Shown here: one piece after another, positions 1,431 to 57,483 of the stretch
Position numbering within the stretch: the first letter of the stretch is position 1
How the letters are laid out: every line of letters starts with the position of its first letter
NCBI GenBank assembly: GCA_028280285.1
Contig: JANQMA010000042.1
Location: forward strand, 3,572 to 67,571
Length of the DNA: 64,000 bases
Direction of reading: 5' to 3'
From: Candidatus Omnitrophota bacterium
GTDB lineage: Bacteria; Omnitrophota; Gorgyraeia; Zapsychrales; Zapsychraceae
Translations under genes and position numbers: made by a program
The notes under the pieces: generated by a model
Told to the model about the DNA's origin: nothing
Seen by the model: only the letters and a program-made list of their open reading frames with translations
The model's database searches: none

Positions 1431-2129
1431 ATGAACAACACACCTCACATTTCTGTCATCATTCCCGTTCATAATGAAGAAAAATCACTGCCGCAGGTCA
1501 TTAGTGATCTTCCCCGCGATATTATCAGTGAAATCATTGTTGTCGATAATGCCAGTACGGATAATACACACACCGTAGCTAAAAAGGCAGGGTGTCGTGT
1601 TATTTTTGAATCGCAAAAAGGCTATGGCAAGGCTTGCCTAGCGGGCATTGCGTGTCTAAACCCTAAAACAGATATCGTTGTTTTTGTCGATGGCGACTAC
1701 AGTGATCACCCGGATGAAATGCCGCGTTTGATTAATCCGATTGTAGAAGGACATTATGACTTTGTGATCGGTTCGCGTATTATGGGTGAGAGGGAAAAAG
1801 GGGCTATGGCACCGCAGGCTTATTTCGGCAATAAATTAGCCTGCTTTCTGATTAAATTATTTTGGGATATTCAGTATACGGATCTAGGGCCTTTTCGCGC
1901 TATTACACGCAAAGCGTTAGATGATCTGATCATGACAGATGAAGATTTTGGCTGGACGATTGAAATGCAAATCAAAGCTATTCGCGCCGGTCTGCGTGTT
2001 AAAGAAATCCCTGTCGCTTACCGCAGGCGTATCGGTCAGTCGAAAATTTCCGGAACATTGGTAGGCACTGTCTTGGCCGGGGGAAAGATACTTTGGACGA
2101 TATTTAAATATAAATTTTTAAAAAAGTGA
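1431..2129 (+). CDS. Family-2 glycosyltransferase (polyprenyl-phosphate sugar synthase / DPM-synthase-like)
   Basis: N-terminal ISVIIPVHNEE, a DGD motif (VDGDYSD), and ~230 aa length typical of GtrB/ArnC-like enzymes. Confidence 0.7.
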   Translation: MNNTPHISVIIPVHNEEKSLPQVISDLPRDIISEIIVVDNASTDNTHTVAKKAGCRVIFESQKGYGKACLAGIACLNPKTDIVVFVDGDYSDHPDEMPRLINPIVEGHYDFVIGSRIMGEREKGAMAPQAYFGNKLACFLIKLFWDIQYTDLGPFRAITRKALDDLIMTDEDFGWTIEMQIKAIRAGLRVKEIPVAYRRRIGQSKISGTLVGTVLAGGKILWTIFKYKFLKK

Positions 2130-2184
2130 TCTGTGGCCTGTGGTCAGTGGTCATTGATCACAGACCACAGAACACGGACCACAT
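2128..2184. repeat. Intergenic hairpin built from GTGGTC/GTGTTC units
   Basis: ctgtggcctgtggtcagtggtc - attgat - cacagaccacagaacacggaccac. Confidence 0.55.
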
Positions 2185-2189
2185 AAACT

Positions 2190-3731
2190 ATGTCTATTAA
2201 TAAGTTGCTTATCACCATAGGTTCGGTTTGTGCTTTGCTTTATGTCATGATCACCTGGATGTCTTTTGGTCTGCCGCTTGAGGTTTGTCACTTCCTCAAT
2301 ACTTTAACCTTTAACCTTTCATCTGAAACCTTTCTAGAATTACAAAACGGTTTTCATTATGACAATCCCAACAATGATATGCCGACCGGGATTTATCTTT
2401 TTATCTTCTTTATTATTTTTGTTCTTGTCTTTTATGCCTTTAAAAAAGTAGAGCATGCGGCCTTTAACCAAAAAACGCTTTTGATTATTATTGTTTTTTC
2501 CATATTATTCAGGCTGCTTTCGTTCTGGGGGACGATGATTCATGAAAATGATATCTATCGCTATATGTGGGATGGAAAGACGGCGTTAGCCGGCATCAAT
2601 CCTTTTAAGTATGCTCCGTCGGATCTTTTTCTTTATGATAATGATATTGATTATGATTATTATGATGCGACGCACGATGTAACACTTAAGTTTACAAATT
2701 GGGACGAAAGAAGCAAGGCCGAGTTAGGTCAGCTGCTTGTCCTGCGTGATCAAGACCAAACGCTTTACAATCGTATCGGTCATTGGCAGGTGCCGACCAT
2801 TTATCCGCCGGTGGCCCAGATCCTATTTGCCGTGCCGATGCTCGCTGCGCCGGGTTCGGATATTGTGATGCGGGCCTTTTTTATGTTATTTGACATCGGT
2901 GTTATTTTTCTTATTATTGCCTTACTTAAAACGTTCGATTGTAATCCACTGTGGGTTATTCTCTACGGATGGATGCCGCTTGTTGTGATTCAGTTGACCC
3001 ATTCCGGGCATTATGATGCGATTGTTATTTTTCTGATGATGTTGAGCCTTTATTTATATATTAAGGGAAGAGAAAACATGGCGTGTATGGTTTTAGCACT
3101 GGCAACGTTAAGTAAGTTTTTCCCGGCGGTGTTATTTTTGTTTATGTTTCGCAAGGACTTTATCCGTAAAGGTATTTTGTTTACGGCGGTCATTGCTTTA
3201 TTTTATATTCCGTTTTTTCTTTGGGGGAGTACGGGCATTGCAGGAGTGTTTGAAGGGTTTATGACTTATAACCGTGATTGGTCGTATCATGCGAGCATTT
3301 TTGATATTGTCTATTATACGCTTGAGGTGATATCAACCGATTGGGTTAAAGATTTATATCCGGCGAAAGTCATTGTGGGGCTAATGTATCTTGGTGTAAT
3401 TGCTTTTTTATTTTTTAAACAAAACCATAGGTCACATGCCCTAAGCCTTATTCAAAACTGTTTTTTTGCAATAGCGACGCTTTTTATTTTGAACCCAGTA
3501 GCTGACCCATGGTACTATTGTTGGGTTATGCCGTTTTTATGTATTTTCAGATACCGTTCATGGATTTTACTATCGGGGCTGCTTATGCTAAGCTATCTTA
3601 ATTTTCATACAGATATTCCCTGGACACAGGTGAGGTTTCTTAATCTGAAACTGATTGTGTGGCTGACCTATTTGCCGTTTTTTATTTTACTCGGATCGGA
3701 ATTTTTAAATCGATATTTTAGGACGCGATGA
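2190..3731 (+). CDS. Polytopic membrane protein, putative GT-C fold glycosyltransferase (DUF2029/PMT-like)
   Basis: 513 aa with more than 10 predicted TM helices and a large loop rich in D/Y/W. It directly follows the DPM-synthase-like GT2, the same arrangement as ArnC/ArnT. Confidence 0.4.
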   Translation: MSINKLLITIGSVCALLYVMITWMSFGLPLEVCHFLNTLTFNLSSETFLELQNGFHYDNPNNDMPTGIYLFIFFIIFVLVFYAFKKVEHAAFNQKTLLIIIVFSILFRLLSFWGTMIHENDIYRYMWDGKTALAGINPFKYAPSDLFLYDNDIDYDYYDATHDVTLKFTNWDERSKAELGQLLVLRDQDQTLYNRIGHWQVPTIYPPVAQILFAVPMLAAPGSDIVMRAFFMLFDIGVIFLIIALLKTFDCNPLWVILYGWMPLVVIQLTHSGHYDAIVIFLMMLSLYLYIKGRENMACMVLALATLSKFFPAVLFLFMFRKDFIRKGILFTAVIALFYIPFFLWGSTGIAGVFEGFMTYNRDWSYHASIFDIVYYTLEVISTDWVKDLYPAKVIVGLMYLGVIAFLFFKQNHRSHALSLIQNCFFAIATLFILNPVADPWYYCWVMPFLCIFRYRSWILLSGLLMLSYLNFHTDIPWTQVRFLNLKLIVWLTYLPFFILLGSEFLNRYFRTR

Positions 3732-3863
3732 ATCGCGTCCCTACGATATTTCTATTAATTTTATTAAAAGTGATAGACATATTGTAGGGGCGCCATTTAT
3801 GGCGCCCTAAGTATAGCGAATATTTTATGTTGTTGGATTGTTATAATTAGCGAAAGGGGCAAG

Positions 3864-4622
3864 ATGAAAAAATTAGCATTATTAATCGCAACACTTAGCA
3901 TTATGTTAACTTCCCACACAGTTAATGCGGCATCAGTTGATTACGGCCCGTACGCAGAAATTCTTAAGACCTATGTTGATAAAAAAGGGCTTGTGGATTA
4001 TGTCGGGCTTAAGGAAAACCGCGAGGCCTTTGATGAGGTGATTGCGGCCTTTACTGATACCGATATCGATGCGCTCAGTCCTGTTGAGCAAAAGGCCTTT
4101 TGGATTAATGCTTATAATGCCTACACGCTTAAATTAATTATCGACCGTTATCCACTTAGATTTGGCGGTATATTGACGATTAACTGGGGTCGTCCGTGGA
4201 ATATAGAGATGAAGGTGGCCGGCCGTGATATCACTTTAGGGGAAATTGAACATGAAATTTTGCGTAAATTAGATCCCCCTGATCCGCGTATTCATTTTGC
4301 GATTAATTGCGCTTCTATCGGTTGTCCAATCTTACCGCAAACACCATTTTATGTTGAAACGCTGGATGCACAATTAGATGAAGAAGCGCGTAAATTTATC
4401 AACAATCCTGATAAAGTGCGTTTAGACAGGGAAAAACAAATGTTATATCATTCGGCTATTTTTAAATGGTTTGAAGAGGATTATTTGATCGATGGCCACA
4501 CATTAAAGAGCTACATTGCACAGTATATGACCGAAGCAGATCAAACATATTTGAATAATAATGAAGTGAAACTTAAGGACTTACGTTATGATTGGGGACT
4601 TAATAAACAAGAAAAACAATAA
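3864..4622 (+). CDS. Secreted DUF547-family protein
   Basis: Signal peptide ending VNAAS; contains the conserved DUF547 motif FWINAYNAYTLKLI. Confidence 0.5.
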   Translation: MKKLALLIATLSIMLTSHTVNAASVDYGPYAEILKTYVDKKGLVDYVGLKENREAFDEVIAAFTDTDIDALSPVEQKAFWINAYNAYTLKLIIDRYPLRFGGILTINWGRPWNIEMKVAGRDITLGEIEHEILRKLDPPDPRIHFAINCASIGCPILPQTPFYVETLDAQLDEEARKFINNPDKVRLDREKQMLYHSAIFKWFEEDYLIDGHTLKSYIAQYMTEADQTYLNNNEVKLKDLRYDWGLNKQEKQ

Positions 4623-4623
4623 G

Positions 4624-4693
4624 GGTGGTCTGCGGCCCGTGGTCTGTGATCGATAATTTTTTGATAGACCACAGAGCACAGAGCACAGATCAC
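4624..4693. repeat. Intergenic hairpin built from GTGGTCTGTG units
   Basis: ggtggtctgcggcccgtggtctgtgatc ... gatagaccacagagcacagagcacagatcac. Confidence 0.55.
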
Positions 4694-4713
4694 TTAGATT
4701 AAGGAGTAAGTAT

Positions 4714-5763
4714 ATGCCAACAAAAACTCACAAAGACGTTTCTGAATATTATGGGAAAGTTTTACAAACGAAAAAAGATTTAAAAACAAGTGCGTGCTGT
4801 TCTTTGGAAAAAGTTTCTGACTATGTCCGTGAACCGCTTAAGATGATCGAAGACGAGATCCAGACCAAATTTTACGGATGTGGTGCGCCGATACCGCTTG
4901 TGCTCGACGGGATGAAGGTTCTTGATTTGGGTTGTGGAACAGGTCGTGATTGTTTTGTGATTTCCTATTATGTTGGGGATAAAGGTGAGGTTGTTGGGAT
5001 TGATATGACGGATGAACAATTGGATGTGGCCAATAAATATCTTCCTGTTCAGATGGAGAGATTCGGTTTTAAACGGCCGAATGTCCGGTTTATCAAAGGT
5101 TATATCGAAGATTTAAAGTCGCTTGATCTGCCGGATAATTATTTTGATGTTGTTGTATCCAACTGTGTTGTTAATTTGTCACCCGATAAAGAATCTGTTT
5201 TAAGTGAGGTATTTCGTGTTCTTAAAGAAGGGGGTGAGTTCTTTTTCTCCGACGTCTATGTGGACCGCCGTTTGCCGGATTGGTGCAAGGAGGCCCCTAT
5301 TCTTTTAGGGGAGTGTTTGGGTGGAGCGTTTTACTGGAAAGATTTTGAGCGCCAGGCAAGCAAGACGGGTTTTCATGATCCGCGTGTTTATGCTTGCTCT
5401 AACATAGATTTATTAGATCAGGAGACGATCGATAAGGTGGGATTTGCTCATTTTAATTCCATTACTTATCGTTTATTCAAGCTCGCACAGTTGGAAGATG
5501 CGTGTGAAGATTATGGGCAGGTTGCCTATTATAAAGGAACGATTGAGCATAGCCCGCACAAATTTGTCTTGGATAACCATCATATATTTGAAAAAGACAA
5601 GCCTATGCTTGTTTGTGCGAATACAGCGGCGATGCTGCAGGACACGCGTTTGACCAAGCATTTTGTGATTAAGGGTGATACTTCAGTTCATTATGGGATT
5701 TTTGCAGGCTGTGGAGAGTTGCCGCCGGCTGATGATGATAAGCCGATTGGAGGATGTTGTTAA
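4714..5763 (+). CDS. arsM: Arsenite S-adenosylmethionine methyltransferase-like (ArsM/AS3MT family)
   Basis: SAM-binding motif VLDLGCGTGRDCF. Family-typical cysteines are present: SACCS, FYGCGAP, NCVVNLS and GECLGGA. The C-terminus ends in Cys-rich GGCC. Confidence 0.65.
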   Translation: MPTKTHKDVSEYYGKVLQTKKDLKTSACCSLEKVSDYVREPLKMIEDEIQTKFYGCGAPIPLVLDGMKVLDLGCGTGRDCFVISYYVGDKGEVVGIDMTDEQLDVANKYLPVQMERFGFKRPNVRFIKGYIEDLKSLDLPDNYFDVVVSNCVVNLSPDKESVLSEVFRVLKEGGEFFFSDVYVDRRLPDWCKEAPILLGECLGGAFYWKDFERQASKTGFHDPRVYACSNIDLLDQETIDKVGFAHFNSITYRLFKLAQLEDACEDYGQVAYYKGTIEHSPHKFVLDNHHIFEKDKPMLVCANTAAMLQDTRLTKHFVIKGDTSVHYGIFAGCGELPPADDDKPIGGCC

Positions 5764-5766
5764 ATC

Positions 5767-5853
5767 GGTGTTCAGTGTTCGGAGTTCAGTGTTCGTTTAT
5801 GATTGAACACAGAACACCAGGTGGTTCGTTACTCAGCTAGAACACCGAACACG
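5767..5853. repeat. Intergenic compound hairpin built from GTGTTCAGTGTTC units
   Basis: gtgttcagtgttcggagttcagtgttcg - tttatgat - tgaacacagaacacc ... gaacaccgaacacg. Confidence 0.6.
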
Positions 5854-5892
5854 CGATGTACTTTATCTGGGTAATTTGCTATAATCCCCTCC

Positions 5893-6531
5893 ATGCTTTC
5901 GATCATCATCCCGATTTATAACGAAGCAAAGATTTTAGTTGAAAAACGTGATTACTACCTCAGTCTTAAAAATAAGGCTGAGGTTCTTTTTGTTGATGGG
6001 GGCAGTACCGATGATTCGGCTGTGATCGCAGCGGAATATGGTAAGGTTATTGCTTCCCCACAGGGACGGGCTGTTCAAAAAAACCGGGGCGTTGTCGAGG
6101 CACCGGGCGATATGTTTTTGTTTCTTCATGTCGACTCATTTATTAGCGATGAAGCCCTTAAGCGGCTTAAAGGATTAAACGGGACTCATGCCGGCTGTTT
6201 GACAATGGCGATTGAAGATAGGCGACTTATTTTCCGCTTATATGAAAGGGTGGTTAATAACCGTGCTATTAAAAAAGGTTTGGTTGATGGGGATTTGGGG
6301 TTATTTGTTACACGTGCTATCTTTAATCAACTCAATGGATTTAAAGAATTAACGATTATGGATGACATTGAATTTTCCGAGCGTTTAAGAAAAATATGTA
6401 CTTTATCGGTTTTGCCCGAGAAAATCTATGTGTCATCGCGCAGGTGGGATGAGCATGGATTTATTTCGACCTTTTGGCGCTACACGCTTGCCTATATTCA
6501 ACATTATACGGGGTGGAGGATATTTAAATAG
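5893..6531 (+). CDS. Small family-2 glycosyltransferase, rSAM/selenodomain-associated 'transferase 2' type (arsenosugar-cluster GT-like)
   Basis: MLSIIIPIYNE and DGGSTDDS motifs; ~210 aa. It sits between the ArsM-like gene and a DUF2064 gene, the synteny described for TIGR04283/TIGR04282 pairs. Confidence 0.5.
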   Translation: MLSIIIPIYNEAKILVEKRDYYLSLKNKAEVLFVDGGSTDDSAVIAAEYGKVIASPQGRAVQKNRGVVEAPGDMFLFLHVDSFISDEALKRLKGLNGTHAGCLTMAIEDRRLIFRLYERVVNNRAIKKGLVDGDLGLFVTRAIFNQLNGFKELTIMDDIEFSERLRKICTLSVLPEKIYVSSRRWDEHGFISTFWRYTLAYIQHYTGWRIFK

Positions 6532-6594
6532 TGTTCGGTGTTCCGTGTTCGGTGTTCAGTCATAAACGAACACTGAACTCTGAACACAGAACAC
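6531..6594. repeat. Intergenic hairpin built from GTGTTCGGTGTTC units
   Basis: gtgttcggtgttccgtgttcggtgttcagtc - ataaa - cgaacactgaactctgaacacagaacac. Confidence 0.6.
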
Positions 6595-6609
6595 TATTAT
6601 AGACTAATT

Positions 6610-7221
6610 ATGAACAATAGTGCCCTAGTCATATTTGCCCGCGAACCAAAGCTGGGCAAGGTCAAGACACGATTGGCCAGAGATGTGGGTGAGGCCGAGG
6701 CCTTGCGTTTATATAAATCTTTTGTCCGTCAGACATTGAAGCTTGCGTCTTCACTCAAAAATCTTGACCGCTATATCTATTATGCCGGCTCCAATGCCTC
6801 CATGCCGTTTTTAAGGCAGTTTAAAAACAGATTTATATTAAAGCAGCAAAGGGGTGGCAATTTGGGCACGCGTATGTATAATGCGTTTGACCATTTATTT
6901 AAGGCAGGGTATCAGAAAGTTATTATTATTGGCACTGATTGTTTGGAAATCACAAAAAAAGACATTCAAACTGCTTATAAAAGATTAGATCGCGCGGATT
7001 ATGTCTTAGGGCCTACTTATGATGGAGGGTATTATTTGATAGGCGCTAAGTTAGCCCACAGGAGTGTGTTTCAAGGTATTACTTGGGGAACAAAAACGGT
7101 GTTTAATCAAACAAAGGCAAAGATTGTAAGGTGTGGGAAGTCATTAAAGGTGATACCCAAAAAGAGCGATATCGATTATTTAGCGGATTTACAGAGATTT
7201 TATAGACAAAAAAAGTTATGA
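6610..7221 (+). CDS. DUF2064 nucleotidyl/glycosyl-transferase-like protein (rSAM/selenodomain-associated 'transferase 1' type)
   Basis: N-terminal LVIFAREPKLGKVKTRLA, IIIGTDCLEI and GPTYDGGYYLIG motifs characteristic of DUF2064/CofC-like proteins. Confidence 0.6.
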   Translation: MNNSALVIFAREPKLGKVKTRLARDVGEAEALRLYKSFVRQTLKLASSLKNLDRYIYYAGSNASMPFLRQFKNRFILKQQRGGNLGTRMYNAFDHLFKAGYQKVIIIGTDCLEITKKDIQTAYKRLDRADYVLGPTYDGGYYLIGAKLAHRSVFQGITWGTKTVFNQTKAKIVRCGKSLKVIPKKSDIDYLADLQRFYRQKKL

Positions 7222-8030: not shown

Positions 8031-9005
8031 ATGCGTGTCCTTCATATTTACACTGAAAACGGTAAAAATTTACTAGAACGTACAGTACAAAATCTCGTTA
8101 AGGGGCTTGATTTTAATGGGGTTGAATCCCAAGTGTGTTGTCTAGATGCATCGTCTGATTTTTCTTCCATTTTAAAAGCATCAAAAGCATCTGTTATTCA
8201 CCTGCACTCTGGAGCAACGTTTAAACAATGCTTGCTGCCAGCCAAGCTTTCTGGTCGTAAGATTATTGTGACAGCCCATCAAGCTAATCAGTCCATTCCT
8301 TATAGTAATCAACATTGGCTTTATAAAAAGGTTGCCAGCTCTGATTTTGTCAATGAAGAGGTCTTTAGTTCTAAAGCGGAGGTGATTTATGATGGGATTG
8401 ACTTAGAAGATTTTGATGCGCAGGCGCGGACAGTTGATGGCGATACGCTTCGCCAAACATATGGAATTGATAAGAATGTTTTCATTATCGGGGCTATCGG
8501 GCCTTTAATTTTGGAAAATGATTATGAAAGTTTGTTTAAAGCTTTGCGTAATGCTGTAGCGAAAGAGATGAATGCGATTGTCCTTATTTCCGGTGAAGGC
8601 CCACTGCGTGCGGATTTGCTTAAAAGTGCAGAAGCTTTGAATATAGCAGATAGAGTGAAGATCATTAACGCAACAGATTATGTGTCTTTGTTTTGTTTGT
8701 TTGATGCCTATGTGGTATCTTCTTTTACAGAAGGTTACTTAAGTAGTATTTTAGGTGCGATGGCAGCGTCTAAGCCTGTGATTGCAACCAAAATCGGTGC
8801 CAATCCTGAGATGGTTGTGCAGGGTAAGACAGGGTTTTTGGTGCCTTGCGGATTTCCGGAGAGGATCGATAATGTGATTATGCGCTGGAGGGCGAATCCG
8901 CAGTTGGCTAAGGATATTGGTTCAGCAGGACGTCAACATGTGGAGGAAAAATTTAGCCTTCCCGTGATGGGAAAAAAGTATAAAGAGTTCTATGGGAAGT
9001 TATAA
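8031..9005 (+). CDS. Family-4 glycosyltransferase (GT-B)
   Basis: C-terminal GT4 signature: EGYLSSILGAMAASKPVIATKIGANPEMV...GFLV. Confidence 0.6.
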   Translation: MRVLHIYTENGKNLLERTVQNLVKGLDFNGVESQVCCLDASSDFSSILKASKASVIHLHSGATFKQCLLPAKLSGRKIIVTAHQANQSIPYSNQHWLYKKVASSDFVNEEVFSSKAEVIYDGIDLEDFDAQARTVDGDTLRQTYGIDKNVFIIGAIGPLILENDYESLFKALRNAVAKEMNAIVLISGEGPLRADLLKSAEALNIADRVKIINATDYVSLFCLFDAYVVSSFTEGYLSSILGAMAASKPVIATKIGANPEMVVQGKTGFLVPCGFPERIDNVIMRWRANPQLAKDIGSAGRQHVEEKFSLPVMGKKYKEFYGKL

Positions 9006-9015
9006 AGGAGAATAT

Positions 9016-9372
9016 ATGGACATTTCAATCAATATTGAACATCGCCCTTGGGGATTTTATATTAAACTTTTTCAAGAGTCGGGTGTGTGGGTTAAGCGTG
9101 TAGAGGTCAAGCCTGGCTGCCGGTTAAGTTTGCAAAAACATGAACACCGTTCAGAAAAGTGGAATATTGTCACCGGAATCGGATTAATCAATCTTGATGA
9201 TCAAGAAATCAAAATAGGCCCTGGTTCGGTTATTGACATACCACTTGGGGCTGTGCATCGTATAGCTAATACCGGGGATGCGCCTCTTGTTTTTATTGAA
9301 GTGGCCTGCGGAGATAACTTGACCGAAGAAGATATTATTCGTATTGAGGATGACTATAAGAGGGATGCTTAA
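9016..9372 (+). CDS. Cupin-domain protein (mannose-6-phosphate isomerase type II C-terminal-like)
   Basis: Strong SD (aaggag) 8 nt upstream of the ATG at 9016. Cupin motifs GCRLSLQKHEHRSEKW and GAVHRIAN. Confidence 0.5.
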   Translation: MDISINIEHRPWGFYIKLFQESGVWVKRVEVKPGCRLSLQKHEHRSEKWNIVTGIGLINLDDQEIKIGPGSVIDIPLGAVHRIANTGDAPLVFIEVACGDNLTEEDIIRIEDDYKRDA

Positions 9373-10315
9373 AAATTTCCTAATTACAGGCGGCGCAGGT
9401 TTTATTGGTTCTCATTTTATCCGGCATCTTTTTCGTAACTATCCTTCCTATCAAATCAACAATCTCGATATTCTTAATTATGCTTCTAATCTTCACTTTT
9501 TAGAAGAAGCTGCCTTATCTGATCGGTACCGGTTTGTAAAAGAGGATGTTTGCAAAACACATAACTATTATTCTTTACTAGGAGAAGTTGATTGTATTGT
9601 GCACTTTGCCGCCCAGACACATGTTGACCGTTCGTTTAATGTGGTCGATGAGTTTATCCACGACAATATTGAGGGAACAGAGAAGTTGCTGGCGGCGATA
9701 CATAATTTAGAAAATATCAAACGTTTTGTGTATATTTCGACTGACGAAGTTTATGGGCCAATCGAACAAGGGTATGTTGATGAAAATGCAGTATTTAATC
9801 CAACTAATCCTTATGCGAAGACAAAGGCGACGGCAGATGCGGCTGTTCAGGAGTTTATAAAGCAGACTAATGTCCCTGCCATCATTATAAGACCGTCAAA
9901 TAATTTTGGTCCTAATCAGCACTTTGAGAAATTCATTCCAACTGTTATCACTAAAGCACTTAATCATTTTAGTGTTCCTGTTTATGGAGATGGGCACTAT
10001 TACCGTGAGTGGATTTATGTGGAAGATTGTGTGCGGGCCATTGATTTAATTATCCATAAAGGGCAGCCGGGGGAAATCTATAATGTAGGATCCAACAATA
10101 TTTGGAGTAATCTTGATTTAGCGAAAAAGATTATTAAGTTATGTGACAGGTCCGAAGGATTAATCGAGTTTGTCAGGGATCGTCCTGTACACGACAGACG
10201 CTATGCAATGGATTGCCGTAAACTTGCTAAACTTGGGTTTGAAATCAAAAGCGACTTTGAATTCTGCCTGCTGCGGACAATTGATTATTATTTGGATAAG
10301 ATCAGCAGGGGGTAG
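9344..10315 (+). CDS. NAD-dependent sugar nucleotide 4,6-dehydratase/epimerase (dTDP-glucose 4,6-dehydratase-like)
   Basis: Rossmann motif TGGAGFIGSH, STDEVYG and PYAKTKA (YxxxK). The start could be the internal Met at 9365. Confidence 0.6.
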   Translation: MRMTIRGMLKNFLITGGAGFIGSHFIRHLFRNYPSYQINNLDILNYASNLHFLEEAALSDRYRFVKEDVCKTHNYYSLLGEVDCIVHFAAQTHVDRSFNVVDEFIHDNIEGTEKLLAAIHNLENIKRFVYISTDEVYGPIEQGYVDENAVFNPTNPYAKTKATADAAVQEFIKQTNVPAIIIRPSNNFGPNQHFEKFIPTVITKALNHFSVPVYGDGHYYREWIYVEDCVRAIDLIIHKGQPGEIYNVGSNNIWSNLDLAKKIIKLCDRSEGLIEFVRDRPVHDRRYAMDCRKLAKLGFEIKSDFEFCLLRTIDYYLDKISRG

Positions 10316-10321
10316 TATCTT

Positions 10322-11686
10322 TTACTGCTTGCGCAAGTGCGACGGGAGGATATTTAGCTCTTTGCGGTATTTGCTTACGGTGCGGCGGGCAACTTTCATT
10401 TTTCTTTTCTCTAATATCTCTAAAATTTCTTGATCAGAAAAAGGTTGTTGTTTATTTTCCTCTTGGACAATCATACGCAGTTCTTCTTTAACGCTGCGGT
10501 TTGATATACTTTGATGGTTTCCATTTTTGGATACAGCTTGTGAAAAGAAATATTTAAGAGGAAATATGCCTTGAGGGGAATCCACGTATTTATTGCAAAT
10601 TGCGCGTGAAACTGTAGATTCATTGCGTCCTATTGTTCGGGCAATGTCGGCCAAGACCATTGGTTTAAGCGCGCTATAGCCTTCTTTAAAAAATTCCTGT
10701 TGATTGTTAACAATATAATCAGCGATCTCTTTAATGGTACTTTGTCTTTGTTCAATGCTTTTAATAAAGAGAAGGGCGCTTTTGATTTTGTCTTTGATGA
10801 ACTGCGTTTCTTCTGTGGTGCTGTTTGGCCGGTTGAGCATATTTTTATAGGCGGCGCTTACACGCAGCTGTGGGATGTACTCATTGGTGACGGTGGCCAC
10901 AAAATGATCATCCTGCTCAGTAATGATGATATCCGGTTTAATATAAAGATTGGCCGGTACTTCACTGAATTTTCTAGCCGGTTTTGGTTCCAGGGTCGCG
11001 ATTTCTTTAGCGTAAAGTCTGACATCCTCAGGACTGATTTTTAGTTTGCGTGCAATCGTATCAAACCTTTTCATGGCAAGGTCATCCAGATGGTCACGAA
11101 TGATAGATTGTATCATCTCACTATGTCCGTTAAAACGAAAGGGGATTTGTGCCAAAAGGCATTCTCTTAAATGGCGTGCCCCGATGCCCACAGGATCAAA
11201 AGTTTGAATTTGTTTCAGGATATTTTCCAGTTTATCGATATCAGCGATATTTAGCTCTTTTGCGATCTGTTGCATATTGCCCTCAAAGTAGCCGTCATTA
11301 TTGATGTAACTGATCAACAATTCCCCGATAGCAATATCCTGTGGATTATTCATTTCCACACGTAGTTGTTTAAGAAGATGTTCCTCAATGCCGATTGGTT
11401 TGGCAATGGGTTTTTCATCAGCGGTGTCATCATCACTGAAAAATGTGTCATTGACCGGTGTGATTGAATTTTGCTCGAAATTCTTTTTATTGTGGATGAT
11501 ATCGTTAATATAGCGGCTCAGTGTGGCTTCAACGTCCTCGGATTCAAGGACTGGGTTGGACTCCATTTCTGCCTCAATGGCTGTGCCCAGTTCAGCGATA
11601 GGTAGTTGCAGAACCTCGATTGATTGCTTCATCACAGGGGCAAAAATCTGCTTTTGGACTTGTTTTGTATTTTGTCTTAATTTCAT
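10322..11686 (-). CDS. rpoN: RNA polymerase sigma-54 factor
   Basis: Region I MKLRQ...QKQ...LQL. C-terminal HTH and RpoN box ARRTVSKYRKEL. 454 aa. Confidence 0.85.
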   Translation of the reverse strand: MKLRQNTKQVQKQIFAPVMKQSIEVLQLPIAELGTAIEAEMESNPVLESEDVEATLSRYINDIIHNKKNFEQNSITPVNDTFFSDDDTADEKPIAKPIGIEEHLLKQLRVEMNNPQDIAIGELLISYINNDGYFEGNMQQIAKELNIADIDKLENILKQIQTFDPVGIGARHLRECLLAQIPFRFNGHSEMIQSIIRDHLDDLAMKRFDTIARKLKISPEDVRLYAKEIATLEPKPARKFSEVPANLYIKPDIIITEQDDHFVATVTNEYIPQLRVSAAYKNMLNRPNSTTEETQFIKDKIKSALLFIKSIEQRQSTIKEIADYIVNNQQEFFKEGYSALKPMVLADIARTIGRNESTVSRAICNKYVDSPQGIFPLKYFFSQAVSKNGNHQSISNRSVKEELRMIVQEENKQQPFSDQEILEILEKRKMKVARRTVSKYRKELNILPSHLRKQ

Positions 11687-13088: not shown

Positions 13089-13146
13089 TTAGTTGTTTGT
13101 TGTTAGGGGAATTTTTTTCAACAACTAACAACCGACAACAAACAAC
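13089..13146. repeat. Intergenic hairpin built from TGTTGT units
   Basis: agttgtttgttgttagggg ... ctaacaaccgacaacaaacaact. Confidence 0.5.
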
Positions 13147-28587: not shown

Positions 28588-29709
28588 ATGAAAATTCTAT
28601 GTATATTTTCAAAGGTATTAGGTGGTAAGACCGTTTCAGCGTATTTCCAAAATATTTTGGATAATATGACCGGTGTTAAACCAACCTATTTTTTTCTGGA
28701 GCCTGGAGATTATAGCAAATACAAGGTATCATCCATTAGCAAAGTGTTGGGCAGTACGGCTGAGACGCTGAGTGTGTTTAAACAAAAATGGCGTGCAGAA
28801 GGCATTGATACCAGCGGTTATGATGCGCTTTTCTTTCAAAGCTATGAACTGACTGCTCTTTTTCGAAAAGAAATTCAATCAATGCCTACTCTGATGCGTG
28901 TGGATACAACGCCGGTGTTGGCTCAAGGGTTAGTGCGTCAGGAGACTGATTCATTGTTTAAAAAATTGAGATCTCATGTGGCCCAGGTTTGGATGAATAG
29001 TGTTTACGGAAATATTTTCACACATATCGATCATATTTTAACCGCCACAGAGTGGGCAAAATCGTCTTTTGTTAGAGATTACAAAATTAATCCTGAAGCT
29101 GTTACTGTGTCTTATCCGGCGAGGGATTTGGATATTTGGAAGCCGCTTGCTAATAAGCCGGTTAACGGGCCTAAGGTACTTTTATTTGTCGGTAATGATT
29201 TTAAGCGTAAAGGAGGCGAATTTTTAATTAAACTTTATCAAAAGCATTTAAAAGGAAGATATAAATTGAGGATTATATCCAATGATGCCATGCTTACTAA
29301 GTTTGAGCAGATAGAAGGTGTTGAGATTCTGCGGGGGATAGGGCACCAGGATTTAGGGCATTTTATCAAACAATATCAAACAGCCGATGCCTTTATTTTT
29401 CCAACATTAAGAGAACAATTAGGCATAGTCTTAACCGAGGCATTATCAGCCGGCCTGCCTGTTGTGGCACGTAATGTTGGTGGGGCGGGGGATGTGGTAA
29501 AAAACGATTATAATGGCTATTTGCTTGATTATGAGGCAGACATAGATCAATGGGCGCGGGTGATCGATGCTGTATGTGAAAATGAGCAAAAACACCAGGA
29601 AATGTCAAAAAATAGCAGAAAATTGGCAGAGCAGATGTTTAATCGCAAAACTAATGCTGAAAATATTTGTCGGATAGTGTATTCTTTAGCAGGATACAAA
29701 GATGATTAA
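28588..29709 (+). CDS. Family-4 glycosyltransferase
   Basis: FPTLREQLGIVLTEALSAGLPVVARNVGG...GYLL. Confidence 0.65.
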   Translation: MKILCIFSKVLGGKTVSAYFQNILDNMTGVKPTYFFLEPGDYSKYKVSSISKVLGSTAETLSVFKQKWRAEGIDTSGYDALFFQSYELTALFRKEIQSMPTLMRVDTTPVLAQGLVRQETDSLFKKLRSHVAQVWMNSVYGNIFTHIDHILTATEWAKSSFVRDYKINPEAVTVSYPARDLDIWKPLANKPVNGPKVLLFVGNDFKRKGGEFLIKLYQKHLKGRYKLRIISNDAMLTKFEQIEGVEILRGIGHQDLGHFIKQYQTADAFIFPTLREQLGIVLTEALSAGLPVVARNVGGAGDVVKNDYNGYLLDYEADIDQWARVIDAVCENEQKHQEMSKNSRKLAEQMFNRKTNAENICRIVYSLAGYKDD

Positions 29710-30493
29710 AGAAGGTCTGAAAAATTTGTTATGGCTTCTGCCTTATGAGATAAGGCGTTCGATAAGTATTCTTAAGAATTACGAATACTACCAGCTTTTA
29801 CAAACAAGACGTAAAACAGTTTACGCGGAAGGGTATTCCCTTAAAGGTTTTGATGAAAATAAGTGCATTTTTATTCATATCCCTAAAACGGCAGGCATAT
29901 CTTTATGTCAAAGTTTGTTTGGTAATTTTGGTCCCGGTCATTTAAATATTCAAACCTATCAACTCATATATAATAGAAATGAATTTGACAAATATTTTAA
30001 ATTTACTTTTGTAAGAAACCCATGGGATAGAGTTGTTTCTGCCTATTATTTTCTTAAAAAAGGTGGGCGGAGTGCTGCAGATCAAAAATGGGCAGATGAA
30101 AATTTAGCGCAATACAAAGACTTTGAGTCTTTTATCCTGGGTTGGCTTAATGCTGAAAATATTGATACATTTGCGCATTTTGTTCCTCAATACAAATATC
30201 TATGCAGTCCTTTAAGCAAGCATCCTATTGTAGATTTTCTTGGTTATTATGAGCATTTAGCGAGTGATTTTAAATACATATGCAATAAGATTGGAATTAA
30301 AGTTGACCTGCAAGAGTTGAATACTACCAAAAATGATCGGCGAGATTACAAAAATTATTATACAAATGAGACGAAACAGATTGTTGAAAAATTATACAAA
30401 AATGACATTGAGTTATTTGGTTACACATTTGATAATGCGTCACTACCGAGCCAACTAGCAAAGCGGGATAAGTTATATGTGGATAGAAATTAA
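29702..30493 (+). CDS. Sulfotransferase (Sulfotransfer_2/3-like, PAPS-dependent)
   Basis: 5'-PSB motif IFIHIPKTAGISL and 3'-PB motif FTFVRNPWDRVVSAYYF. Confidence 0.65.
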   Translation: MIKEGLKNLLWLLPYEIRRSISILKNYEYYQLLQTRRKTVYAEGYSLKGFDENKCIFIHIPKTAGISLCQSLFGNFGPGHLNIQTYQLIYNRNEFDKYFKFTFVRNPWDRVVSAYYFLKKGGRSAADQKWADENLAQYKDFESFILGWLNAENIDTFAHFVPQYKYLCSPLSKHPIVDFLGYYEHLASDFKYICNKIGIKVDLQELNTTKNDRRDYKNYYTNETKQIVEKLYKNDIELFGYTFDNASLPSQLAKRDKLYVDRN

Positions 30494-33359
30494 GCGCATC
30501 ATACAAGTTTTATTAGTCGGAGCCGTTGTTTGTTTTGCGACAAACGCTTCTGCCCAAGGGTCGCAAAAAGCTGTTATTCAGTTTACGGTTAACGGAAAAA
30601 GTGATCCGCGCATCTTAAATACGGGTAATCCTATTACATTGTACCGTGTTGAAAATTCTAAAAGGGTCTCAACAGGTATAAAATCTCCGATTTCACCTAA
30701 ATCGTCTGTTGAATTTGATTTACCGGATACAAAAAGCAAATACCTGCTGCAATTTTCCATTGCGGGAAGTAGTACACCCGTATTCAGTAAGCCTATTCAG
30801 CCCGGGTTTCAAAAACTTGATTTGCCCATTGCGCATATTAAATTACAGGGTGATCAATCTACTCTGAGTGAATATGTGAATAAAAACGTCTATCTATTTA
30901 CCAAAGATAGCGGTAAGTACAAAAATTTATGGCAGAAATCTAAAATATTTAAGACGGGTGAGTTTTTTATTTATCTTCCCGGTGATGCTGATTATGTAGC
31001 AGGGGTTGAGCTTAAACACCGCCAATACCTGTATTCCGGGCCGCTTAAGGCCGGGGTTCAAAAGTGGGATCCTAAGGCAAACCGTCCTCCTGTGATCAAT
31101 ATTATTGAAAAACAGACTATTCATGCTGATGATAAGGTTAACATTAAATTAACCGCATCTGATATAGATAAAGACACACTTGAGCTGAAACTTTTACAAG
31201 CCCCGGACTTTGTTTTACTCAGGGATTGGCATGATAACGCAGGCTCTTTAGTTTTTCAACCAAAGGTCAAGGATAAGGGTAAATTTGAAATAATATATGG
31301 GGTTTCTGATGGAGAGCATTTAACAAAACATAGTTTTGAGCTTGTTGTTAGGGGGGCTCAAAATACAATCGCTGAAACGATTAATGATACTTTTTCCAAT
31401 ATTGTTGGCAAGAAAGAAAAGCATGGTCCGGCAATTTCAGCGATATGGGTTAATAATGGAGAAGACAAGGTAACACAAGATGAACTACGCAAATCAAAAG
31501 GGTATGATGTTACGAGTAGTGTGTGGGATGGCACAAACATTAAATTATTCGGCGCGCGTAATGAAATGGTTAATTTTAATCTTATTATCGAGGCCGCTAA
31601 GCACGATGCTGAAGAGGTTAGTGTTGAGCTTGATGGTTTAATTGGACCGGAAGGATTTGTTATTTCATCACGTCAAGCTAATAAAGATGACCCGTTTGAT
31701 TTTATTAATCGTAATATCGAATTATTTTTTGTCCGCTATCTACAAATTCTGGGTGTCAGCCAACTGGCGTATAATCCGCAGTACGATGAGCGGCATGTGC
31801 CGGCAAAATTACGGCTTCCTTTTTCCAGTAAAAATGGGAAGTCCAGAGGGAAATGGGAAAATAGGCCTAACGCCAATAAGTATTATCCCGATATTGCTGT
31901 TCCTTTAGAGGTGATAGGAAGTTTTCCTATTGCGGCCAAATCTAATCAAAGTATTTGGGCGGATATTTACATTCCGCGCAATGCGCCTGCAGGTACTTAT
32001 CACGGGACGGTTAAAGTATTTGAGTCCAATAAGCAATTTAAAGAAATTCCTCTTGCGCTTAAGGTCATTGATTTTACACTACCGGATGAATCGACAGCCA
32101 AAACAATGGTTTATTTTAATGAAGAAAATCTCAATGACAGATATTTTGGAAAAAAGTGGCCGATATTTGATCAAGAGCCGCTTGTACGCCAAAAACAAAT
32201 GGCCCAGGTTTGGTATAATCATCATAAGGTTGCCCATAGGCATAAGATTTCTTTAATTGATGATGGCAAGTCAATCAATCCCGGACGTATAGGTGATCAC
32301 CTGCCGTGGGGTAATGCAAAATGGATGCCGGTACTAAACGGGGAGCTTTTTACCGATCAGTATGGTTATCAAGGTCCCGGGGAAGGTGTGTCGAGTGGTG
32401 TTTACTCGATCGGAACATACGGAGGATGGAAAAGAGGCTGGGATGAAGAAAATAAAGAAGATCTGTGGAAAAAGTCTGACCTTTGGGTAACATGGTTTGA
32501 TGAGGTTTTTCCGAATGTGGAATATTTTCTCTATTTACTGGATGAGCCCAAAAGAGGCGCTTATGAAAAAGTTGAGCGTTGGGCTCGTTGGATTGATGAG
32601 AATCCTGGTCCAGGGAGGAGGCTTAAAACTTTAACAACGGGAAAACTGCAAGAAGTCTATTATCACATGCCGTCGGTTGATATTGCTTTTACATGGTGGG
32701 GTGATAAAGAAAAATATGCGCCTATTGTTATGGATTATTTAAAGAGCGGTAAGCCGTACTGGGCCTATAATGGGCACCGTCCGTGGGCGGGCAGTTATGC
32801 GATTGAAGATGAAGGTGTTGCTATGCGGACATGGGGATGGATTCAGTTTAAACATACAGTGGCCCGTTGGTTTTATTGGCAGGCAACGCATTACAAAAAT
32901 TCTTCCTATATCCGAGAAGAGACAAATGTGTTTGAAACGGCTTGTACATTCGGTCGTTGTAATGATAGTTGGAAAGATAAGTATGGCAAAACCGGGCATA
33001 ATTATAATAACGGGGACGGTGTTTTGTTTTATCCGGGGATTGAAAGGCGCTATCCGCAGGATAGTTATGGACTGTTAGGTCCGATTACTAGTTTGCGCCT
33101 TAAGCATTGGCGACGGGGTATTCAGGACCATGATTATTTAACTATGGCGGCACAATATGACCCTCAAAAAGTGAAGGGTATTGTGCAGCGCATAATCCCT
33201 AAGGTGCTTTGGGAAGTGGGTGTAACTGATCCCAAAGATCCCTCTTATGTGCATGCAGATATTAGTTGGTCGATTAATCCGGATGTATGGGAAAAAGCTC
33301 GACGTGAACTAGCAGAAATTATTATTAAAGGGCAAAGCAAGGATAATAAAAATGGATAA
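30477..33359 (+). CDS. Large secreted multidomain protein of unknown function; cadherin-like Ig domain plus a W/Y-rich C-terminal region that may be glycoside-hydrolase-like
   Basis: Signal peptide ending NASAQG. Ig-like segment [35 protein letters not shown]. The C-terminal region is rich in conserved W/Y/G: [23 protein letters not shown]. Confidence 0.45.
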
Positions 33360-33969
33360 AGAAATACAAAAAAATATCATTCCTCATGATGCAATTATTA
33401 ATAAGAACCATCGACGGAAATTAAATCATCATGGATCAGCGGTATTATGGTTTACAGGATTATCAGGTTCGGGTAAATCTACCATCGCACATAATTTAGA
33501 GTCAGCTTTGTATGAACGTGAAGTAAGAACATATGTTTTGGATGGAGATAATGTGCGTACCGGGCTTAATAAGGGTTTGACTTTTTCTCCCGAGGACCGT
33601 AAAGAAAATATACGCCGTATTGGTGAGGTATCAAAATTATTTATGGATTGTGGAATCTTTTTGCTGACGGCATTCATATCACCCTATAGGGAAGACAGGC
33701 AATTTGTACGGTCCCTGGTTGAGTCAGGAGAGTTTATTGAGATTTATGTTAAGTGTCCAGTTGAGGTGTGCGAAAAACGTGATGTCAAAGGTCTTTATAA
33801 AAAGGCACGTGATGGTGAAATCAAGAATTTTACCGGAATCAGTGCGCCATATGAAGAGCCTGAGTCTGCTGAAATCTTAATCGATTCGGATGCGATGACA
33901 CTTGAAAAAAGTGTGGAAGTGATTATTGAATATCTGGAGCAGAATGGCTACTTGGAAATAAAGGGATAA
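33352..33969 (+). CDS. cysC: Adenylyl-sulfate (APS) kinase
   Basis: P-loop [16 protein letters not shown] and [11 protein letters not shown]. 205 aa. Confidence 0.85.
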
Positions 33970-35151: not shown

Positions 35152-35253
35152 GTGTTCAGTGTTCTAGATAGGCAAACCGATGAATGGTGTTCAGTGTTCT
35201 GATAGAGCACTGAACACGAAATTTCTAAATTTGGTAAGAACACAGAACACTAT
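35152..35253. repeat. Intergenic cluster of GTGTTCAGTGTTC / GAACACAGAACAC units (two direct copies plus inverted copies)
   Basis: tgtgttcagtgttc ... ggtgttcagtgttc ... gcactgaacacg ... gaacacagaacac. Confidence 0.6.
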
Positions 35254-35264
35254 TTCTATATATT

Positions 35265-49095: not shown

Positions 49096-49099
49096 AGTA

Positions 49100-51282: not shown

Positions 51283-51439
51283 AGTAAAGGAAAAATTTGA
51301 TAAGCCTGTGTAAAGTTTAATGTTTAGTGTTTGAAACAAGTAAACCTTTTTTAAACTTTAAACTATAAACATTAAACAGAATTGTCTACATTACTCTTAC
51401 TATTAATATTGTATATCATCCCGTTGTCTTGAAAACGCA

Positions 51440-57482: not shown

Positions 57483-57483
57483 T

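Follow-up and report, generated by a model that had tools for sequence, protein, structure and literature searches.

An arsenic-methylation and sugar-transfer gene module of an uncultured Omnitrophota bacterium, probably belonging to an arsenosugar-type pathway

Major organoarsenicals of aquatic food webs include arsenosugars and arsenosugar phospholipids (PMC7345539). In a 64-kb stretch of DNA from an uncultured Candidatus Omnitrophota bacterium (the window), an ArsM-type methyltransferase gene is followed by genes for a family-2 glycosyltransferase (GT2) and a DUF2064 protein, and the pathway enzyme ArsS is missing. This raises the question of whether the genes serve an arsenosugar-type pathway, and whether they form an acquired cassette. 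The reading that we favor, and hold to be somewhat probable, is that positions 4714-7221 encode the ArsM, TIGR04283 GT2 and TIGR04282 components of an arsenosugar-type organoarsenical pathway, vertically inherited, with ArsS encoded elsewhere and the genes forming part of a larger unit at 1431-7221.

The three ORFs lie on the plus strand where a sequence-only reading had placed them. The first (4714-5763, 349 aa) encodes an ArsM/AS3MT-type As(III) S-adenosylmethionine methyltransferase, as that reading had proposed. It matched the solved structure of Chlamydomonas ArsM (5evj) end to end (residues 8-334, E = 4e-106) and that of CmArsM (4fs8) over residues 8-331, C-terminal domain included (E = 3e-86), compared with 1e-9 for the best non-ArsM methyltransferase match. 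Its class I SAM-dependent methyltransferase domain scored 122 bits with Pfam Methyltransf_31 and 68 to 69 bits with Methyltransf_11 and Methyltransf_25. C28, C56, C151 and C201 align to C44, C72, C174 and C224 of CmArsM, and these four catalytic Cys residues are kept in 97 to 99 of 99 homologues. The intact catalytic residues suggest that the enzyme methylates As(III). A UbiE-type quinone methyltransferase was rejected, with 48 bits compared with 177 for ArsM and with PDB matches in agreement. The protein scored under the curated NCBIfam cut-offs of NF008823 (177 vs 263 bits), NF038099 (arsenosugar ArsM, 110 vs 400) and NF040538 (134 vs 500), and its relatives are named by NCBI merely as "methyltransferase domain-containing protein".

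Both transferases reached the profiles predicted for them. The GT2 (5893-6531, 212 aa) scored 188.9 bits with TIGR04283, a narrow margin over the cut-off of 182, and keeps 35 of the 37 family-conserved residues, the remaining two being conservative changes; the columns were defined by at least 85% conservation and include the N-terminal NE, DGGS.D and H.D. The DUF2064 protein (6610-7221, 203 aa) scored 208.4 bits with TIGR04282 (cut-off 134) and 113.5 bits with Pfam DUF2064, and keeps 29 of 30 family-conserved residues. The preservation of these residues indicates that the two genes are not decaying. The DUF2064 protein also matched, over its full length, PDB 3cgx, a structural-genomics DUF2064 protein annotated as a "putative nucleotide-diphospho-sugar transferase" (E = 6e-30), and weakly the model for CofC, 2-phospho-L-lactate guanylyltransferase (TIGR03552, E = 3.6e-7). 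These matches suggest an NTP-transferase fold, and the protein is a probable nucleotidyltransferase; unlike CofC, it belongs to a distinct family and has no F420 context. Together the three genes are a real module, probably for arsenic methylation and sugar transfer.

TIGR04283 is titled "arsenosugar biosynthesis glycosyltransferase" in NCBIfam, and TIGR04282 and TIGR04283 are also titled "rSAM/selenodomain-associated transferases 1 and 2". Like the set TIGR04167/TIGR04282/TIGR04283 described in NCBIfam/TIGRFAMs, the window has both transferases above their cut-offs and next to each other, with GT2 before DUF2064 as is usual. Unlike that set, it locally lacks the defining partner TIGR04167 and adds a GT-C glycosyltransferase, a DPM-like GT2 and a DUF547 protein.

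The absence of ArsS from the window, already noted in the sequence-only reading, was borne out by every search. No CxxxCxxC motif occurred in six-frame ORFs of at least 80 aa across the 64 kb, phmmer with two confirmed ArsS proteins gave no match in the window, and Pfam scans of ORFs of at least 120 aa found no radical SAM protein and no ars genes; shorter ORFs were covered by the motif and phmmer searches. Neither an MTAP-like phosphorylase nor an arsenic transporter was detected in the 64 kb. Like the ArsM and ArsS arsenosugar pathway of Synechocystis sp. PCC 6803, the locus has an ArsM-type enzyme with the same four Cys residues, and a genuine ArsS (TIGR04167) lies between the same genes in its close relatives. 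Unlike that pathway, it lacks ArsS, both in the window and in the surroundings of the module in 11 related species, and its host is an uncultured, non-photosynthetic member of the Omnitrophota.

The gene order of the relatives is informative on this point. One sister locus (L024) reads MsrB-ArsM-GT2-ArsS-MsrA-DUF2064, its ArsS scoring 442 bits on TIGR04167 (cut-off 300), and another type (L174/L175) reads MsrB-ArsM-GT2-PHO4-ArsS-DUF2064-MsrA. Both have the order of the window with ArsS, with or without PHO4, inserted between GT2 and DUF2064. Identities of the window proteins to those of the sister loci are 68 to 69% for ArsM, 41 to 50% for GT2 and 36% for DUF2064, and the ArsM of L024 nests in the ArsM clade of the window. 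The window module is orthologous to genes of an ArsS-containing cluster. The most likely place for ArsS is another locus of this genome.

Four independent fusions link the families concerned: GT2 with DUF2064 (L011), ArsS with DUF2064 (P0159), GT-C with a TIGR04283-like GT2 adjoining DUF547-ArsM-PHO4-ArsS (L179), and a DPM-like GT2 with GT-C beside ArsS, DUF547 and DUF2064 (L099). Such fusions argue that GT2, DUF2064, ArsS and GT-C act together. Loci with ArsS alone also exist in the same clade, for example an orphan ArsS (L178) that is 76% identical to that of L024 and has no partner within 10 kb on a 608-kb contig, which suggests that the gene set of the pathway is split over several loci. 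In the window-type genome JACKFL01, the ArsM module (L016) is on contig 6 and an MsrB-DUF547-DedA-FAD reductase locus (L176) is on contig 5. ArsS is common in Omnitrophota, and a metagenome search with Omnitrophota ArsS returned at least two close relatives; its other matches were used for general statistics on gene neighbourhoods. Three contigs (9041, 5671 and 37864 bp) were common to the ArsM and ArsS matches listed, and each belongs to the sister type that contains ArsS. In an accession-range comparison of ArsM and ArsS proteins from one study, MCA9398455 and MCB9772195 lay outside the ranges expected for ArsM-bearing MAGs.

These observations bear on the strongest rival explanation, in which the clade has lost ArsS and PHO4, ArsM alone detoxifies or volatilises arsenite, and GT2, DUF2064, GT-C and DUF547 make an envelope glycoconjugate unrelated to arsenic. 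No ArsS was found around the module in the 11 related species, in flanks of up to 10 kb (shorter where contigs are short; six loci span the full 10 kb on both sides). As weak evidence, the 120 top-ranked Omnitrophota-type ArsS matches listed include none on either of two JACKFL01 contigs (1.63 Mb and 2.0 Mb). ArsM is 70 to 81% identical across the 11 species compared with 41 to 59% for its neighbours, so that it could have an independent role, and elsewhere ArsM is solitary or accompanied by an aquaporin (L009, L026). However, the four fusions, the orphan ArsS loci of the same clade, the order ArsM-GT2-[ArsS]-DUF2064 kept in sister loci, the same gene families accompanying ArsS in several phyla, and the preserved TIGR04282 and TIGR04283 residues all speak against a role apart from ArsS, and we regard this alternative as unlikely.

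The pathway could also act on antimony, selenium or another soft metalloid or chalcogen instead of arsenic, in which case the "arsenosugar" family names would mislead for this clade. Selenoproteins are frequent in the ArsS family, the clusters contain MsrA, MsrB, thioredoxin and MerA-like reductases, and the window ArsM scores under the curated ArsM cut-offs. All four As(III)-binding Cys residues are nevertheless kept, similarity to ArsM enzymes that have been studied biochemically extends along the whole protein, and the PHO4 transporters of the sister clusters fit arsenate uptake; we find such a substrate distinctly improbable.

Under the favored arsenosugar-type reading, a larger co-directional unit at 1431-7221 is proposed, in which ArsM, GT2 and DUF2064 are joined by three upstream genes, all on the plus strand, whose families recur in ArsS clusters elsewhere. 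The first (1431-2129) encodes a GT2 resembling polyprenyl-phosphate sugar synthases (GtrB/DPM1/AglJ-like). It scored 89.8 bits with Pfam Glycos_transf_2, 72.7 bits with dolichyl-P hexose transferase and 143 bits with its best NCBIfam match, AglJ TIGR04182, under the cut-off of 325. Its homologue lies immediately 5' of GT87 in eight related loci (65 to 70% identity) and forms part of the L099 fusion (229 bits). The second (2190-3731) encodes a polytopic GT-C membrane glycosyltransferase (GT87/MptA_B-like; Pfam GT87 33.4 bits, cut-off 25) with at least nine hydrophobic segments. The window GT-C is 28% identical to the L179 fusion over 498 aa (E = 3e-49), matches the L099 fusion with E = 4e-13, and shares with both the loop motif D-x-[YW]-R-Y-x-W-[DE]-G. 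Near DUF547 elsewhere, GT-C is present as a remnant in L108 and as a weak relative in L081. The GtrB/DPM-like GT2 proteins adjacent or fused to this GT-C suggest that its donor may be a polyprenyl-phosphate sugar.

The third gene (3864-4622), overlooked in the sequence-only reading, encodes an exported DUF547 protein (Pfam 86 bits) that is a member of the module. Its N-terminus, read straight off the sequence, is signal-peptide-like (MKKLALLIATLSIMLTSHTVNA), and H144, C149, C154 and P155 of its His/Cys..Cys-Pro motif are invariant across homologues. DUF547 has an ArsM, ArsS, GT2 or DUF2064 gene as its neighbour in 15 or more loci from several phyla, and at least 17 close homologues were taken to lie on the same contig as window-type ArsM matches because the lengths of their longest contigs are equal. 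Its AlphaFold2 model has a pLDDT of 92.9 and found no match in a PDB fold search. Downstream, a GT4 glycosyltransferase (8031-9005, plus strand, Pfam Glycos_transf_1 83.5 bits) is a conserved neighbour of uncertain membership in the unit; it also follows DUF2064 in L013, L016, L017, L019 and L020 (34 to 50% identity). The module had been described as lying inside an EPS locus. Its immediate neighbours are indeed glycosyltransferases, but rpoN, on the opposite strand, separates it from the exosortase/PEP-CTERM EPS locus (Wza/Wzx/Wzy/exosortase), which starts at 12.3 kb and ends at about 45 kb.

Hairpins of tandem 7-nt units occupy all three gaps around the genes, as had been claimed, and were the basis for the suggestion of a horizontally inserted cassette. 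They lie in the DUF547/ArsM gap (4624-4693, -32.1 kcal/mol, z = -5.1), in the ArsM/GT2 gap (5765-5853, unit GTGTTCR, -36.0 kcal/mol, z = -4.7) and at the GT2/DUF2064 junction (6531-6595, -38.7 kcal/mol, z = -8.6), and for each of them 0 of 200 shuffles folded as well. Upstream, hairpins of the same type occur at 1370-1427 and at 2125-2183, and others lie far off at 13089-13142, 35152-35255 and 51310-51382. The hairpins have no T-tracts; when the whole window was scanned with Rfam for the hairpins or for riboswitches, no family matched, and promoter and terminator consensus scans gave no excess over shuffles. The GT2/DUF2064 junction is the site at which PHO4-ArsS (L174) or ArsS-MsrA (L024) is inserted in the sister loci. 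The 78-bp gap there was considered as the scar of a recent ArsS deletion and this was rejected: all window-type relatives, whose genes abut or overlap, have no ArsS at the junction, which indicates that the absence of ArsS predates the hairpin.

ArsM-GT2-DUF2064 is found in the 11 related species (mostly Omnitrophota), mostly after GT2-GT87(-DUF547), with no such hairpins between the genes and none at the DUF547/ArsM junction. The proteins closest to the module are all from Omnitrophota. When the module was compared with its flanks, its GC, GC3 and codon usage departed from those of the other genes in the window by no more than about 1 SD, the exception being codon usage of the short DUF2064 gene (z = 1.6), and the module was not deviant. 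Horizontal acquisition of a three-gene cassette with the hairpins as its ends, although each gap holds one, is very improbable, since composition is flank-like, relatives keep the gene order without hairpins, the same hairpins sit in unrelated gaps, and no integrase or transposase is nearby (the sole transposase of the window is at 49328-49975). By these comparisons the module appears to be vertically inherited within a Candidatus Omnitrophota clade, and the heptamer hairpins are intergenic elements specific to the lineage; they do not mark the ends of a cassette and have no connection with the origin of the module.

In the pathway that we propose, ArsM would methylate As(III) to dimethylarsenite, as its intact catalytic residues suggest. 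ArsS, the radical SAM enzyme that forms the C-As bond, has no gene in the window; it reportedly converts dimethylarsenite to DDMAA by adenosylation (PMC13598754) and would then add a 5'-deoxyadenosyl group to yield 5'-deoxy-5'-dimethylarsinoyl-adenosine. Adenine may be removed by an MTAP-like phosphorylase, the genes for which (TIGR01694 285 bits) are present in the clusters L011, L041, L050 and L056, to give arseno-ribose 1-phosphate. This could be activated with a nucleotide by the CofC-like DUF2064 protein, and the TIGR04283 GT2 could move the arseno-ribosyl group, possibly onto polyprenyl-phosphate or a lipid. Since GT-C is fused to either type of GT2 in two ArsS loci, a lipid-carrier step with transfer at the outer face may follow, in which GT-C would hand the arseno-ribosyl group to an outer-face acceptor with the help of the exported, Cys-containing DUF547 protein, as fusions and neighbourhoods suggest. 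Only ArsM and ArsS are characterised enzymes in the searchable literature, which holds no characterised step beyond DDMAA in any organism, and searches on TIGR04282/TIGR04283/DUF2064, on DUF547 with arsenic and on Omnitrophota with arsenic returned nothing on function.

Three-component lipid-carrier glycosylation systems consist of a GtrB-like GT2, a flippase and a GT-C, as in ArnC/ArnT and CsbB/YfhO. Like these, the window has a cytoplasmic polyprenyl-phosphate-type GT2 adjoining a polytopic GT-C, and the sister clusters repeatedly carry DedA/VTT genes. To our knowledge, no such system carries an organoarsenical sugar as its cargo, and unlike in those systems the link in the window is suggested by fusions and neighbourhoods. 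The location beside membrane glycosyltransferase genes hints that an arsenic sugar is passed to the cell envelope. The earlier suggestion of an arseno-sugar decoration of an envelope polymer or lipid seems to gain indirect support from the GT-C fusions, and it would concern the upstream GT-C and GT2 and not the EPS locus. We offer as a tentative idea, doubtful as it stands, that arseno-ribose is not released in soluble form: DUF2064 would activate it, GT2 would load it onto polyprenyl-phosphate or a lipid, and GT-C would transfer it to an outer-face envelope acceptor, with DUF547 as a new component. The acceptor might, for instance, be a glycan, or else phosphatidylglycerol, whose glycerol head group would take up the sugar to form an arsenosugar phospholipid.

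A widespread Omnitrophota ArsM clade is left unnamed under current annotation cut-offs. Because genes of the pathway are often scattered, a missing ArsS beside ArsM should not be read as a missing pathway. Should the clade truly have no ArsS, TIGR04282 and TIGR04283 would together serve a role independent of ArsS, and the family names would be in question. The locus and its relatives provide a candidate set for the late steps, namely MTAP-like phosphorylase, DUF2064 nucleotidyltransferase, TIGR04283 GT2, GT-C, DUF547 and DedA, and transfer to the envelope, if true, would fill in the late part of arsenosugar and arsenolipid biosynthesis that is still missing.

The module comprises three plus-strand genes, as the sequence-only reading had described: an ArsM/AS3MT-type enzyme (4714-5763, 349 aa), a TIGR04283 family-2 glycosyltransferase (GT2; 5893-6531, 212 aa) and a TIGR04282/DUF2064 protein (6610-7221, 203 aa). 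In a PDB comparison, residues 8-334 of the first protein matched Chlamydomonas ArsM (5evj) with E = 4e-106 and residues 8-331 matched Cyanidioschyzon ArsM (4fs8) with E = 3e-86, while the top non-ArsM methyltransferase reached only 1e-9. The catalytic cysteines C44, C72, C174 and C224 of CmArsM aligned with C28, C56, C151 and C201 of the window protein, and these are kept in 97-99 of the 99 ArsM homologues collected. With full-length matches and all four catalytic cysteines aligned, the suggested ArsM-like identity holds: judged by its sequence, the 349-aa protein belongs to the ArsM/AS3MT type. Five further cysteine positions (C29, C264, C301, C333 and C348-C349), which include a Cys-Cys pair at the extreme C-terminus, are retained in 90-97 of the 99 homologues.

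The window ArsM scored 177 bits on NF008823 (NCBIfam curated cut-off 263) and 110 bits on NF038099, the arsenosugar-type ArsM model (cut-off 400). Because the ArsM clade lies under the curated cut-offs, relatives are named at NCBI only as "methyltransferase domain-containing protein". Both other families were assigned as proposed, narrowly for the GT2 (TIGR04283, 188.9 bits; cut-off 182) and comfortably for the DUF2064 protein (TIGR04282, 208.4 bits; cut-off 134), and nearly all family-conserved residues are present in the two proteins. The DUF2064 protein also matched the structural-genomics protein 3cgx (E = 6e-30); its CofC match was weak.

No arsS gene had been seen in the window, and our searches agree. 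The CxxxCxxC motif was absent from all six-frame ORFs of at least 80 aa in the 64 kb, and phmmer searches of the window gave no match to either of two ArsS queries (verified by TIGR04167 scores of 428 and 451 bits), to an MTAP-like phosphorylase or to an aquaporin. A Pfam scan of the other long window ORFs found no radical SAM, ArsR, ArsC, Acr3, ArsB or PHO4 domain. In two sister arrangements whose ArsM is 68-69% identical, ArsS lies at the GT2/DUF2064 junction. One of these comparison loci, L024, has the order MsrB-ArsM-GT2-ArsS-MsrA-DUF2064, with an ArsS scoring 442 bits on TIGR04167 (cut-off 300), and falls within the window's ArsM clade in a neighbour-joining tree. The other, L174/L175, has the order MsrB-ArsM-GT2-PHO4-ArsS-DUF2064-MsrA. 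On a related Omnitrophota contig (L018), a 343-aa ORF without an NCBIfam match (2763-3794) lies between GT2 and DUF2064, in the same position as ArsS in the sister loci.

ArsS is abundant in Omnitrophota, and the gene set is often scattered over separate loci. On one 608-kb contig (L178), an ArsS 76% identical to that of L024 has no partner genes within 10 kb. In JACKFL01 (GCA_020632495.1, with contigs of 2.0 and 1.63 Mb), a relative's assembly carrying a window-type module, contig 6 bears the ArsM module (L016) and contig 5 an MsrB-DUF547-DedA-FAD-disulfide-reductase locus (L176). Orphan ArsS loci are frequent in other phyla too. ArsS is probably encoded elsewhere in the window's genome. A genuine absence, the less probable reading, has a weak signal in its favour: for the two megabase contigs of JACKFL01, no ArsS was among the best 120 matches listed.

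Three genes directly upstream of the module encode a DPM-like GT2 (1431-2129), a GT87-like GT-C enzyme with at least nine hydrophobic segments (2190-3731) and a DUF547 protein with a signal-peptide-like N-terminus (3864-4622). In the DUF547 protein H144, C154 and P155 show no variation and C149 almost none. At least 15 loci, spread over several phyla, have a DUF547 gene adjoining ArsM, ArsS or the transferases. For at least 17 close homologues the longest contig equals in length that of a window-type ArsM match, which is taken to mean a shared contig. Two distant ArsS clusters encode fusion proteins that include a GT-C homologue. In the first (L179), a 713-aa protein located between DUF547 and ArsM-PHO4-ArsS matches the entire window GT-C over its N-terminal 470 residues (28% identity, E = 3e-49) and the window TIGR04283 GT2 over its C-terminal 200 residues (33% identity, E = 1e-24). 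In the second (L099), the fusion is a 648-aa protein encoded between ArsS-DUF547 and DUF2064; one part is homologous to the window's DPM-like GT2 (229 bits) and the other is a GT-C domain (E = 4e-13). A GT-C remnant lies between DUF547 and ArsM-ArsS in L108, a weak GT-C relative adjoins DUF547 in L081, and fusions of GT2 with DUF2064 (L011) and of ArsS with DUF2064 (comparison protein P0159) also occur. These fusions and the DUF547 neighbourhoods make it plausible that 1431-7221 is a single functional unit.

The nearest proteins to the module are all from Candidatus Omnitrophota. Scanning species-representative genomes gave 11 related species (ArsM identity 70-81%), mostly Omnitrophota, some records carrying other submitter labels. 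ArsM is followed by GT2 in all 11, and DUF2064 comes next wherever the contig reaches far enough. Upstream of the trio there are usually the DPM-like GT2 and GT87, sometimes together with DUF547, and GT4 is often downstream. The neighbours of ArsM are merely 41-59% identical in these relatives, so the gene order has outlasted substantial divergence.

Tandem-unit hairpins had been noted in the gaps before and between the three genes, and they are real. Their arms are tandem 7-nt units, e.g. GTGTTCR and its complement, and they were far more stable than dinucleotide shuffles at 4624-4693 (z = -5.1), 5765-5853 (z = -4.7) and 6531-6595 (z = -8.6), none being matched in stability by any of 200 shuffles. 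Similar intergenic hairpins were found at 1370-1427, 2125-2183, 13089-13142, 35152-35255 and 51310-51382. Across the window sites the arms have 3-4 unit copies, z ranges from -3.6 to -8.6, and the unit varies (GTGTTCR, GTGGTCW, GGTTTTA/TAACACC, GTTGTTT); the element at 35152-35255 is nested, a hairpin within a hairpin. None has a T-tract or matched an Rfam family, and they are missing from the corresponding junctions in related genomes, where genes abut or overlap. The heptamer hairpins are intergenic elements specific to the lineage of this genome. A strong hairpin of a different kind, with a 28-bp non-heptamer stem, lies at 3717-3811 between the GT-C gene and DUF547.

The sequence-only reading had taken these elements as possible boundaries of a horizontally inserted cassette. 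In GC, GC3 and codon usage, the three genes deviate by no more than about 1 SD from the 58 long window ORFs; the one exception is the codon distance of the short DUF2064 gene (z = 1.6). Since the order is conserved in relatives without hairpins, the hairpins recur at unrelated sites and composition is ordinary, a recently transferred or hairpin-delimited cassette is contradicted.

Nor does the module lie inside the EPS locus, where it had been placed. Its plus-strand row runs hemL, DUF3568, GT2, GT87, DUF547, ArsM, GT2, DUF2064, acyltransferase_3, GT4, cupin and NDP-sugar dehydratase, and minus-strand rpoN (10322-11686) intervenes before the EPS locus proper begins at about 12.3 kb. That locus (12331-45855) is a complete exosortase (EpsH)/PEP-CTERM system with Wza, a GNVR chain-length protein, a ParA-like kinase, eight GT4 enzymes, Wzx, Wzy, a sulfotransferase (29702-30493), APS kinase (33352-33969), EpsH exosortase, DUF3485, a priming transferase and a PEP-CTERM protein. 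The sulfotransferase and APS kinase suggest a sulfated polysaccharide. Downstream are a PrsK/PrsR-like sensor kinase and sigma-54 response regulator (57427-60187). An IS1595-family (ISXO2-like) transposase ORF (49328-49975), with an A-rich tandem-repeat tract ahead (49099-49157), splits a lolA/FtsX/ABC transporter region.

Omnitrophota-type ArsS clusters (L024, L093, L174-L176, L179) recurrently carry MsrB, MsrA, a PHO4 phosphate transporter, a DedA/VTT membrane protein, thioredoxins and a MerA-like FAD disulfide reductase, none of which is in the window. An MTAP-like phosphorylase (TIGR01694, 285 bits; cut-off 275) occurs in the ArsM/ArsS/GT2-DUF2064 clusters L011 (7730-8572), L041, L050 and L056. 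In L011 a second, distinct radical SAM protein of 463 aa (8569-9960) adjoins ArsM; its top matches, TrsS and tetraether-synthase-like models, are far under cut-off. In Thermodesulfovibrionia, Deferribacter and related loci (L028, L030, L044, L047, L055, L061, L063, L073, L076, L080) the ArsM frame is about 2 kb (about 660 aa), which may be an N-terminal fusion or else an ORF-calling artefact.

ArsS converts dimethylarsenite to 5'-deoxy-5'-dimethylarsinoyl-adenosine by adenosylation (PMC13598754). Natural arsenosugar phospholipids and an isoprenoid-linked (phytyl) arsenosugar are known (PMC7345539). The MTAP-like phosphorylase is a natural candidate for stripping adenine from the ArsS product, which would release arseno-ribose-1-phosphate. 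The CofC-like DUF2064 protein might then form a nucleotide sugar, from which the TIGR04283 GT2 would transfer the arseno-sugar, possibly onto polyprenyl phosphate, and the GT-C may complete the transfer at the outer face of the membrane. The DedA family has a carrier-flipping role, and the recurring DedA/VTT proteins could flip this carrier. A role in keeping thiols or arsenicals in the reduced state would fall to MsrA, MsrB, thioredoxin and the MerA-like reductase. The observations behind this scheme are family membership, intact catalytic and conserved residues, orthology to ArsS-containing clusters, and the fusions; a literature search gave no publication on what TIGR04282, TIGR04283, DUF547 or a GT-C does in arsenic metabolism.

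The core trio belongs to the gene set that NCBIfam labels "arsenosugar biosynthesis", which agrees with the arsenosugar reading and is ordinary at that level. In contrast to that set, ArsS is locally missing across a whole clade, the trio is embedded in a conserved GT2/GT-C/DUF547 context, and the ArsM clade scores too low for the naming cut-offs now in use. A lipid-carrier step, or a genuine absence of ArsS, would, if confirmed, be a finding of greater interest.
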